NCBI RefSeq assembly: GCF_003334355.1
Contig: NZ_QOWP01000001.1
Reading direction: 5' to 3' (one strand)
Source of the DNA: Escherichia coli
GTDB lineage: Bacteria > Pseudomonadota > Gammaproteobacteria > Enterobacterales > Enterobacteriaceae
DNA length: 64,000 bases
In this document: one piece after another, positions 30,248 to 53,155 of the stretch
Layout of the letters: every line of letters begins with the position of its first letter
Position numbering within the stretch: the stretch's first letter is position 1
Notes under the pieces: model-generated
What the model was told of the DNA's origin: nothing
Databases searched by the model: none
Seen by the model: the letters and a program-made list of their open reading frames with translations, nothing else
Translations under genes and position numbers: made by a program

Positions 30248-30541
30248 ATGAATCTGAGTACTAAACAAAAACAGCACCTGAAAGGTCTGGCACATCCGCT
30301 CAAGCCAGTTGTTCTGCTTGGCAGTAATGGTTTGACCGAAGGGGTGCTGGCCGAGATTGAACAAGCGTTAGAGCACCATGAACTCATCAAGGTGAAAATC
30401 GCCACCGAAGATCGCGAAACTAAAACCTTGATCGTGGAAGCTATCGTGCGCGAAACCGGCGCCTGTAATGTACAGGTCATCGGTAAAACGCTGGTGCTTT
30501 ATCGCCCAACTAAAGAACGTAAAATCTCGCTGCCACGCTAA
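30248..30541 (+). CDS. yhbY: RNA-binding protein YhbY (CRS1/YhbY domain), 97 aa
   Basis: ORF track 30248..30541; ATG verified. Confidence 0.93.
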   Translation: MNLSTKQKQHLKGLAHPLKPVVLLGSNGLTEGVLAEIEQALEHHELIKVKIATEDRETKTLIVEAIVRETGACNVQVIGKTLVLYRPTKERKISLPR

Positions 30542-30628
30542 GATTATCCTAAAGTTACACACATTTGCTGTGTAAAACGAGGGGTTTTCCGCAGGCAGGA
30601 GAGCAAAATGCCACGCTCTGTTCGTTGA

Positions 30629-30655
30629 TAAAAGGCCGCATAGCGGCCTTTTTCC
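30629..30655. terminator. Bidirectional intrinsic terminator between convergent yhbY and greA
   Basis: Hairpin aggccgc-ata-gcggcct flanked by A-run upstream and T-run downstream. Confidence 0.75.
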
Positions 30656-30696
30656 TTTCTTTACAATACATCAACATCTTGAGTATTGGGTAATTC

Positions 30697-31173
<477 letters not shown>

Positions 31174-31267
31174 TTGTTATACCTCTTGAATATTCCTGAT
31201 GGGGCAAGTCTTCACCCACCCCGGCTGTTCGGCCTGCCCGGCATAACTCCTCACCGGGACCAGAAGC

Positions 31268-31345
31268 AAAAAAATACCGACCCGGGTACAAGTCCCAGGT
31301 CAGCTACAATTCACATTTTGATAGTCATTTTACCCTGAAGTTCCC
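31268..31345 (-). ncRNA. graL: greA leader attenuator region (GraL-type short transcripts), approximate
   Basis: On the minus strand a hairpin gacctggg-acttgta-cccgggtc is followed by ggtattttttt, i.e. an intrinsic terminator inside the greA 5' leader; start not mapped. Confidence 0.4.
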
Positions 31346-31420
31346 GAAGGGTCATCGTTTACTTTATAGGGCGTTGCGCCGTAGTATGACGGCTCGATTC
31401 CAGGTTGTTAGCGCGAGATT

Positions 31421-32854
31421 ATGCGATTTTCCAGATTTATCATCGGATTGACCAGCTGTATAGCGTTCAGTGTTCAGGCCGCAAATGTTGATGAGTACAT
31501 TACTCAACTCCCCGCTGGTGCCAACCTTGCCCTGATGGTGCAAAAAGTCGGCGCGTCGGCCCCCGCTATTGATTACCACAGTCAGCAGATGGCGCTGCCT
31601 GCCAGTACCCAGAAAGTGATTACTGCGCTGGCGGCGTTGATTCAACTCGGCCCCGATTTTCGTTTTACCACGACGCTTGAAACCAAAGGCAATGTGGAAA
31701 ACGGCGTACTTAAGGGTGACTTAGTGGCGCGATTTGGTGCCGATCCGACGTTAAAACGTCAGGATATTCGCAATATGGTCGCGACTTTGAAAAAATCTGG
31801 CGTCAACCAAATCGATGGCAATGTGTTGATAGATACCTCCATTTTCGCCAGCCACGATAAAGCCCCCGGCTGGCCATGGAATGACATGACACAATGCTTT
31901 AGCGCTCCGCCTGCCGCCGCCATAGTTGACCGCAACTGTTTCTCCGTCTCGCTCTACAGTGCCCCAAAGCCTGGTGATATGGCTTTTATACGCGTGGCAT
32001 CTTATTACCCCGTTACGATGTTCAGCCAGGTACGCACCCTCCCCCGTGGTTCTGCCGAAGCGCAATACTGCGAACTGGATGTGGTGCCAGGCGACCTGAA
32101 CCGCTTTACGCTGACGGGATGCCTGCCACAACGTTCTGAGCCGCTCCCGTTGGCTTTTGCCGTGCAGGATGGAGCCAGCTATGCCGGTGCAATTCTGAAA
32201 GATGAGTTAAAACAGGCGGGTATCACCTGGAGCGGAACACTGCTGCGCCAGACTCAGGTTAACGAACCTGGAACGGTAGTTGCCAGTAAACAGTCGGCCC
32301 CGCTGCACGATCTGCTTAAGATTATGCTGAAAAAGTCGGACAACATGATCGCCGATACGGTTTTCCGCATGATAGGCCATGCGCGCTTCAATGTGCCTGG
32401 AACATGGCGGGCCGGGTCGGACGCCGTGCGTCAGATCCTGCGCCAGCAAGCCGGTGTCGATATTGGAAACACCATTATTGCCGATGGTTCAGGGCTTTCG
32501 CGGCATAACCTGATTGCCCCCGCCACCATGATGCAGGTGCTGCAATACATTGCCCAACACGACAATGAACTTAACTTTATCTCCATGCTGCCGCTGGCGG
32601 GCTATGACGGCTCTTTGCAGTACCGTGCAGGTCTGCATCAGGCGGGCGTGGATGGAAAAGTCTCAGCGAAAACCGGTTCGTTGCAGGGGGTATATAACCT
32701 GGCGGGATTCATTACCACAGCGAGCGGGCAACGAATGGCGTTTGTGCAATATCTTTCTGGCTATGCAGTAGAACCTGCGGATCAGCGTAATCGCCGTATT
32801 CCGTTAGTGCGTTTTGAAAGCCGTTTGTATAAAGATATTTATCAGAACAATTAG
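31421..32854 (+). CDS. dacB: D-alanyl-D-alanine carboxypeptidase/endopeptidase PBP4, 477 aa
   Basis: ORF track 31421..32854; ATG verified; signal peptide and active-site STQK motif. Confidence 0.95.
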   Translation: MRFSRFIIGLTSCIAFSVQAANVDEYITQLPAGANLALMVQKVGASAPAIDYHSQQMALPASTQKVITALAALIQLGPDFRFTTTLETKGNVENGVLKGDLVARFGADPTLKRQDIRNMVATLKKSGVNQIDGNVLIDTSIFASHDKAPGWPWNDMTQCFSAPPAAAIVDRNCFSVSLYSAPKPGDMAFIRVASYYPVTMFSQVRTLPRGSAEAQYCELDVVPGDLNRFTLTGCLPQRSEPLPLAFAVQDGASYAGAILKDELKQAGITWSGTLLRQTQVNEPGTVVASKQSAPLHDLLKIMLKKSDNMIADTVFRMIGHARFNVPGTWRAGSDAVRQILRQQAGVDIGNTIIADGSGLSRHNLIAPATMMQVLQYIAQHDNELNFISMLPLAGYDGSLQYRAGLHQAGVDGKVSAKTGSLQGVYNLAGFITTASGQRMAFVQYLSGYAVEPADQRNRRIPLVRFESRLYKDIYQNN

Positions 32855-32860
32855 TCAAAA

Positions 32861-32886
32861 AGAAACCCCGGCACATGGCCGGGGCT
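32861..32886. terminator. Hairpin terminator between dacB and obgE
   Basis: ccccggc-acatg-gccgggg stem-loop flanked by A/T-rich runs. Confidence 0.6.
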
Positions 32887-32917
32887 TCAGATTATTGACA
32901 AAGTGCGCTTTGTTTAT

Positions 32918-53034: not shown

Positions 53035-53155
53035 GTGCGGCCTGAAAAACAGTGCTGTGCCCTTGTAACTCATCATAATAATTTACGGCGCAGCCAAGTT
53101 TTCCCTGGTGTTGGCGCAGTATTCGCGCACCCCGGTCTAGCCGGGGTCATTTTTT
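53035..53155 (+). ncRNA. arcZ: ArcZ sRNA (RyhA/SraH)
   Basis: gtgcggcctgaaaaacagtgctgtgcccttgtaactcatcataataatttacggcgcagccaag...gcgcaccccggtctagccggggtcatttttt matches recalled ArcZ sequence; terminal hairpin plus U-run overlaps the arcB stop on the opposite strand. Confidence 0.85.

Follow-up and report, generated by a model that had tools for sequence, protein, structure and literature searches.

The window analysed here is a stretch of 64,000 nt of Escherichia coli DNA. The feature under study lies in the 247-bp divergent intergenic region between dacB and greA, on the greA strand and 5' of the greA ATG (Table 1). The 381 bases from 31100 to 31480 match many E. coli genomes with 100% identity, the region is present in all of the 5,426 complete genomes searched (5,426/5,426), and the matched E. 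coli DNA, identical in sequence, is annotated dacB and greA in RefSeq. In E. coli, GreA is the principal factor for transcript cleavage and fidelity, and its level has to be kept steady. The greA leader contains a G+C-rich hairpin that is followed by a U-rich tract, and just upstream of the hairpin are the elements of two overlapping promoters.

This feature matches the Rfam family RF01769 (Enterobacteria greA leader) over a stretch that runs from 31390 to 31269 on the minus strand and covers model positions 1-124 of 124. The match scores 127.5 bits (E 1.5e-24) against a gathering score of 60 bits, and it was repeated in a scan of the whole window. We confidently identify the feature as GraL, the intrinsic (Rho-independent) terminator of the E. 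coli greA 5' leader, and none of the tests made produced counter-evidence to this identification. The GraL terminator is already known: it was published in 2010, it is in Rfam, and it is visible in genome-wide 3' end maps. The element described for E. coli K-12 (PMC2836576, PMC6829880) is the same, with no sequence differences, and all of the K-12 traits are found here, namely the 11-bp stem, the AU7GCU2 tail, P1 and P2 starting with AU and AA 11 nt apart, the AUG at +150 and a hairpin that begins at +19. With RF01769 (PMC2965389) it shares the full length of the model, the genomic context and the terminator helix. An earlier note, made from the sequence without database searches, had proposed a terminator within the leader that gives rise to short GraL RNAs, and on this RF01769, the published anatomy and Term-seq all agree. 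The greA leader terminator can therefore be regarded as a positive control, a validated regulatory element recovered and named from raw sequence alone.

Table 1. Features of the greA leader and further annotated elements of the window. Coordinates are window positions.
Feature	Position	Strand	Basis or remark
greA CDS, 158 aa	30697..31173	-	ORF list and RefSeq 'transcription elongation factor GreA'; ATG at 31173
Read-through greA 5' UTR, 90 nt, with Shine-Dalgarno region	31174..31263	-	sequence
U-rich tail A-U7-G-C-U-U, imprecise termination zone	31264..31275	-	sequence; AU7GCU2 published
Dominant in vivo 3' end, -96 from greA ATG, 6th U of U7	31269	-	Term-seq (PMC7815308)
Terminator stem 3' arm CCCGGGUCGGU	31276..31286	-	scan, fold, conserved pairing
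Terminator loop ACUUGUA	31287..31293	-	scan and fold; varies more between species than the rest of the element
Terminator stem 5' arm GCUGACCUGGG	31294..31304	-	terminator scan, fold, conserved pairing
GraL 5' segment AUCAAAAUGUGAAUUGUA, 18 nt, unstructured	31305..31322	-	folds to 0 kcal/mol
P2 start, A, RNA begins AA (31311-31310)	31311	-	ApA priming, 11 nt past P1
greA P2 (sigma-E) -10 TCAAA, 16-nt spacer	31317..31321	-	sequence; conserved in alignment A1
P1 start +1, A, RNA begins AU	31322	-	published ApU priming and numbering
greA P1 -10 TAAAAT, 17-nt spacer from -35	31327..31332	-	promoter scan; near-invariant in alignment A1
greA P2 (sigma-E) -35 GGAACTT	31338..31344	-	sequence; AACT invariant in alignment A1
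greA P1 (sigma-70) -35 ATGACC	31350..31355	-	promoter scan; TGACCC invariant in 99 species
RF01769 match	31269..31390	-	only 31322-31269 transcribed from P1/P2; 31390-31323 promoter DNA
dacB ORF	31421-32854	+	ORF list and RefSeq annotation
SraG sRNA	13685-13856	+	Rfam, above threshold
Ribosomal S15 leader	14086-14200	-	Rfam, above threshold
naRNA4	15713-15783	-	Rfam, above threshold
rimP leader	20482-20582	-	Rfam, above threshold
tRNA	20674-20747	-	Rfam, above threshold
tRNA	24533-24616	-	Rfam, above threshold
ArcZ sRNA	53035-53142	+	Rfam, above threshold

On the minus strand, 31304-31264 reads GCTGACCTGGG-ACTTGTA-CCCGGGTCGGT-ATTTTTTTGCTT. In the RNA the two arms, GCUGACCUGGG and CCCGGGUCGGU, are followed by AUUUUUUUGCUU. 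They form a G+C-rich stem of 11 bp, with pairs from 31304:31276 through 31294:31286, closed by a loop of 7 nt (31293-31287). The hairpin gacctggg/acttgta/cccgggtc noted earlier is present on the minus strand 5' of the greA ATG, and its 8 bp are real, but they are only the core of this longer stem, which has three further pairs. The 'ggt' that had been assigned to the tail is instead the bottom of the stem, where it takes part in pairs of the G-C, G-U and U-G type, so the true tail is A-U7-G-C-U-U, 31275-31264. The terminator scan reports 11 pairs (7 G-C), a loop of 7 and the tail ATTTTTTTGC, which makes the element an intrinsic terminator by the canonical definition of a G+C-rich hairpin with a loop of 3-8 nt and a U-rich tract no more than 2 nt from the stem. 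Its minimum free energy is -21.4 kcal/mol (z = -3.7 to -4.2 relative to dinucleotide-preserving shuffles). The hairpin begins 18 nt past the P1 start and 7 nt past the P2 start; the first base of the stem lies 131 nt, and the last base of the tail 90 nt, upstream of the greA ATG.

The sequence 5' of the hairpin contains candidate elements for two overlapping promoters at the required spacing. The P2 elements match the sigma-E consensus, GGAACTT-N16-TCAAA. That both promoters are active is known from the papers: primer extension and in vitro transcription were used to map P1, and P2 is sigma-E dependent in vitro (PMC2836576). Transcription was primed with ApU at P1 and with ApA at P2, the latter 11 bp downstream of the former (PMC2836576). 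In the published numbering from P1, the greA AUG is at +150, the hairpin extends from +19 and the termination zone ends at +59 (PMC6829880). We place +1 of P1 at 31322 because only this position fits, with the AUG at nt 150, +19 at 31304 and +59 at 31264. The P1 transcripts are 49-59 nt long (PMC6829880), so they end at 31274-31264, which is the U7GCUU tract. For P2 the published values differ slightly, the offset from P1 being 11 bp in PMC2836576 and 12, by implication, in the ranges of 49-59 and 37-47 nt given in PMC6829880. The AA start at 31311 supports the 11-nt offset and gives P2 RNAs of 38-48 nt, one nucleotide off the published 37-47. Two further 5' ends located downstream, P3 and P4, are probably processing products (PMC2836576). 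These starts also delimit the leader. Of the span 31268-31380 that the earlier note had assigned to it, 31322-31268 is RNA, but 31323-31380 is promoter DNA.

The opposite strand of the promoter region has sequences of its own. A TTTACT (31358-31363) and a TAGTAT (31382-31387), 18 nt apart on the plus strand, lie about 34 nt before the dacB ATG at 31421, and both hexamers fall in columns that are invariant across 99 species. At a guess, this pair is a divergent dacB promoter; an alternative for the same A/T-rich block (AAAGTAAAC, minus strand) is an UP-like element belonging to greA P1. The conservation of 31390-31320 may be owed in part to a divergent dacB promoter. Primer extension gave no dacB transcripts under the conditions used (PMC2836576), and the literature searched yielded no relevant report of where dacB transcription starts or of its promoter.

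Term-seq of E. coli MG1655 provides evidence that transcripts end at the hairpin in vivo. A 3' end mapped to 3328811 on the minus strand, 96 nt 5' of the greA start codon and classed as 'orphan', has 65,239 reads in LB at OD 0.4 and 61,204 in a second condition (PMC7815308). The site is from supplementary files 1 and 3 of that paper, where it is listed without a name; neither greA nor GraL occurs in the main text. The 61-nt flank of the site in MG1655 matches window positions 31319-31259 exactly. The earlier note had staked its reading on Term-seq 3' ends at the U-run, and a strong end is found there, at 31269 (PMC7815308). The intrinsic-terminator score of the site is 5.2, where values of 3.0 or more suggest intrinsic termination, and its Rho score, obtained from Term-seq with and without bicyclomycin, is 0.67 and not significant (PMC7815308).

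The release of the short RNAs has been reconstituted. Pure RNA polymerase releases them from immobilised (bead-bound) templates, and they persist when GreA or GreB is added (PMC2836576). They have single start sites and their 3' ends are spread across about 10 consecutive positions. Northern blots detect them in vivo only when the terminator is present, and their pattern is unaltered in rnc and rne mutants (PMC2836576). The efficiency of termination is 66% in vivo, as measured with reporter fusions with and without the terminator, and about 60% in vitro; it looked constant through growth. Shortening the stem from the top lowers the efficiency and makes the ends no sharper; swapping the bottom three base pairs gives sharper ends and stronger termination (PMC2836576). 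With canonical intrinsic terminators, for example lambda tR2 with its stem of 7-8 bp followed by UUU..., the greA leader has in common a G+C-rich hairpin, a U-rich tract and factor-independent release with an efficiency set by stem length and pairing. Unlike them, it has an 11-bp stem, a UAU7 tract that is broken at its second position, 3' ends that extend over about 10 nt, and an efficiency of only about 60-66%. Imprecise termination makes the leader terminator a textbook oddity.

Homologous leaders were collected with a degenerate DNA pattern of the first ten greA codons, taking one genome per species, so that the choice of relatives was not conditioned on the leader itself. The search returned 105 loci, essentially all of them from Enterobacteriaceae. 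The 135 nt equivalent to 31392-31258 gave an alignment of 99 distinct sequences (alignment A1), in which 97.8% of the cells of the terminator helix are paired. Compensatory changes on both sides occur at 4 of the 11 stem pairs (37 cells), and in 30 sequences the top stem pair is changed from GC to AU. The observed stem values are reached by 0 to 5 of 500 shuffles, in a control that ignores phylogeny, and sliding the partner by 1-3 columns reduces pairing to 24-55%. The covariation is confined to few positions and few lineages, most pairs being near-invariant, and we would call it supportive rather than overwhelming. RF01769 scores above threshold in each of the ten diverse genera examined (Shimwellia, Mangrovibacter, Salmonella, Pluralibacter, Atlantibacter, Siccibacter, Raoultella, Enterobacter and a further two), and the hairpin is stable in all relatives, with a median of -19 kcal/mol.

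Two aspects of this conservation are of interest beyond the pairing. The arms of the stem are near-invariant (CUGACCUGG / CCGGGUC) across the 99 sequences, more so than pairing needs. The U-tract (columns 129-139 of alignment A1, equivalent to 31275-31264) is interrupted in nearly every genus, and this occurs in two ways: Escherichia, Salmonella and Citrobacter have UAUUUUUUU (UAU7), and most other genera have UUUUCUUUU(U) (U4CU4). An interrupted U-tract would fit selection for a partial, not a complete, stop. Among the collected loci, one labelled Chryseobacterium sp. 18061 (L070, CACSKA010000008.1, about 11835-12054) has a greA gene and leader of the Enterobacteriaceae type and is almost identical to the Pluralibacter-like loci L028 and L099. 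This contig is probably a contaminant, or mislabelled, in the Chryseobacterium assembly.

Several explanations other than an intrinsic terminator that limits greA expression have to be weighed. The leader could be a classical attenuator or a riboswitch-like element, in which an upstream antiterminator helix competes with the terminator. In RF01769 the terminator is preceded by other helices, all 124 positions of the model are matched in E. coli, and Naville and Gautheret (2010) reported a clear antiterminator, with structures for both the greA and the rnk leader (PMC2965389). The non-terminator helices are, however, at 31390-31320, upstream of the P1 start at 31322 or straddling it. They share sequence with the P1 -35 and -10 and with the sigma-E -35, and are therefore absent from P1 and P2 RNA. 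The seeds of the family were drawn from the upstream gene's boundary (at most 200 nt) as far as the terminator, without the use of start-site data (PMC2965389). The 15 pairs of the 5' helices have 0 compensatory changes in 99 species and do no better than shuffles, and every variable position breaks the pairing (e.g. in 62 of 99 at one pair). The 18-nt 5' segment of GraL, at 0 kcal/mol, cannot compete with a hairpin of -19 kcal/mol, and both the MFE and the centroid folds of P1 and P2 RNAs (to +59) contain the terminator hairpin. The effect of GreA is, moreover, to increase termination and not to relieve it (PMC6829880). Judged from these folds, an antiterminator is unable to form in the P1 and P2 RNA actually made, and we consider a leader of this kind very unlikely. 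Another alternative attributes the short RNAs to Rho termination, to pausing or arrest, or to nuclease processing of the greA mRNA. Ends across about 10 nt are unusual for an intrinsic terminator, one band behaves like a pause (PMC2836576), and the downstream P3 and P4 ends probably do arise by processing. This alternative is already refuted by the published release assay, in which pure polymerase releases the RNAs factor-free and they persist with GreA or GreB (PMC2836576). The unchanged pattern in rnc and rne mutants and a Rho call of 'No' at the Term-seq site (PMC7815308) also speak against it, and its probability is minimal.

The probability that the hairpin and its T-run are a functionless coincidence in an intergenic region is negligible. 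A terminator-pattern scan over 3 kb found 7 sites where 3.6 +/- 2.4 were expected, a count that alone is not significant. It is thus not the pattern match that makes the element significant but its fold, its conservation and the experimental data, and a chance origin is already refuted by a z of about -4, conservation with compensatory changes among the 99 species, some 65,000 reads in Term-seq at the U-run, and the reporter and northern data. A further proposal is that the main purpose of the leader is to produce GraL as a trans-acting sRNA, with greA expressed by leaky read-through and its regulation a by-product. Overproduction of GraL improves competitive fitness and alters more than 100 transcripts, which a scrambled control does not (PMC2836576), nudE is reported as a trans target (PMC6829880), and the sequences of the stem arms and of the 5' segment are conserved well past the needs of pairing. 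Against this, the 2010 study found no direct GraL target, and the effects in trans needed 20-fold overexpression or a ppGpp0 background (PMC2836576). GraL supplied in trans had no effect on greA fusions, and the cis role in greA autoregulation was demonstrated directly (PMC6829880). The trans role rests on overexpression phenotypes and on the reported nudE target. We consider it possible, though rather unlikely, that the trans-acting RNA is the main purpose; the two roles are compatible and not mutually exclusive.

These comparisons also bear on the family model. The first ~69 positions of RF01769 (31323-31390) appear to be conserved promoter DNA and not RNA structure, and when the model is set against the mapped RNA only its last ~55 positions correspond to the RNA element. 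Membership of the family, which is based on score, is unaffected by the missing covariation of the 5' helices. The sole new point of this analysis is a minor one of curation, that the 5' half of RF01769 appears to model conserved divergent-promoter DNA.

Two other candidate elements in the leader were tried and rejected. The only potential leader peptide before the hairpin is an AUG-UGA start-stop pair (31316-31311, minus strand), 6 nt from the 5' end of the P1 RNA. It has no Shine-Dalgarno sequence and occurs in Escherichia rows only, and for these reasons it is probably meaningless. ViennaRNA predicts that the A-rich 5' segment pairs with the U-tail, by at least 3 pairs, in 87 of 99 species. 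On the alignment the proposed helix is paired in 91.5%, as compared with 93.1% after a shift of one column, and shuffles do equally well; the pairing is an effect of composition and not a specific structure.

Termination in the greA leader is linked to the GreA protein. In vivo, greA is repressed 2.5- to 5-fold by its own product, and this autorepression requires the catalytic residue D41 and persists when lacUV5 replaces the promoters (PMC6829880). Most of it disappears on scrambling of +1 to +18 or on swapping of the hairpin arms, changes after which termination still occurs, and it is unaffected by deletion of the sequence beyond +59 (PMC6829880). Deletion of greA lowers GraL about 4-fold, and GraL is restored by supplied GreA. 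Autorepression is independent of Hfq, of the Nus factors and of sigma-E (PMC6829880). Enhancement of termination by GreA was not reproduced in vitro with the purified system (PMC6829880), from which we infer that GreA raises termination in vivo via an extra co-factor or an indirect route.

Together with the coordinates determined here, these results give the following mechanism. Two overlapping strong promoters, P1 and P2, start RNA just 5' of the hairpin. About 60-66% of the polymerases release their RNA at 31274-31264, giving GraL RNAs of 38-59 nt, and the others, about a third, continue through the last 90 nt of the leader to make greA mRNA. With release at this level, the terminator acts as a constitutive throttle on greA. 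It is at the same time the cis element for GreA self-repression: with more catalytically active GreA, GraL increases and read-through decreases in vivo, and for this the sequence of GraL is needed, both +1 to +18 and the arms of the hairpin, but not the promoters. The released GraL may also act in trans, with nudE as the reported target. The leader terminator is the device that keeps the level of GreA steady. The interruption of the U-tract and the conservation of the stem-arm sequence probably reflect tuning for partial, regulatable termination.

The 'attenuation-type control' of the earlier note holds to the extent that the terminator throttles greA, with about two-thirds termination, and mediates GreA autorepression in vivo. 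It does not hold in the sense of a switch, as the leader has no antiterminator and no leader peptide, and GreA increases termination, an effect that is not seen in the purified system. The trp leader, the T-box and SreA likewise use a premature terminator in the 5' UTR to set downstream expression, and the terminated product of SreA acts in trans, as is reported for GraL. Unlike these three, the greA leader has no antiterminator, leader peptide or known ligand. It differs from classical attenuators also in that its effector, GreA, enhances termination, presumably with a co-factor.

A bolder version of the proposed mechanism is that the GraL terminator is a sequence-specific sensor of GreA activity and more than a leaky terminator. 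A further factor, or a backtrack-prone RNA polymerase at the interrupted U-tract, would read the sequence of the hairpin, and the transcript-cleavage activity of GreA would be converted into more termination. The near-invariant stem and the interrupted U-tract are compatible with sequence-specific recognition by a factor, and taken with the published finding that GreA control is lost on a mere swap of the arms they leave room for such a reading. We regard this version as improbable on present evidence. If true, it would represent a new class of factor-enhanced intrinsic termination. The idea was raised as an open question by the original GraL authors, and a literature search for newer mechanistic work on GraL found none beyond the 2010 and 2019 papers, nor did a search for GraL by name in Term-seq papers add to these two.

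The window contains other RNA elements and terminator-like hairpins. The SraG, S15 leader, naRNA4, rimP leader, tRNA and ArcZ matches are those expected for this E. coli region. Weak, sub-threshold Rfam matches to STnc420, STnc540 and HOTAIR_2 near 30623-30863 were rejected as chance or generic terminator matches. A hairpin at 30630-30652, between the convergent yhbY (plus strand) and greA (minus strand), has a good U-tract only on the plus strand. The Term-seq 3' end of yhbY, at 3328197 in MG1655, corresponds to window position 30655, just past this hairpin, and the greA 3' ends on the minus strand are found 100-180 nt beyond it, at 30526 and 30450, antisense to the end of yhbY (PMC7815308). 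A strong terminator-like hairpin on the minus strand at 32862-32888, with 11 pairs of which 8 are G-C, is located 8 nt after the dacB stop (32854, plus strand) and about 150 nt downstream of obgE (minus strand). A shared or bidirectional terminator is one possible reading of this hairpin.
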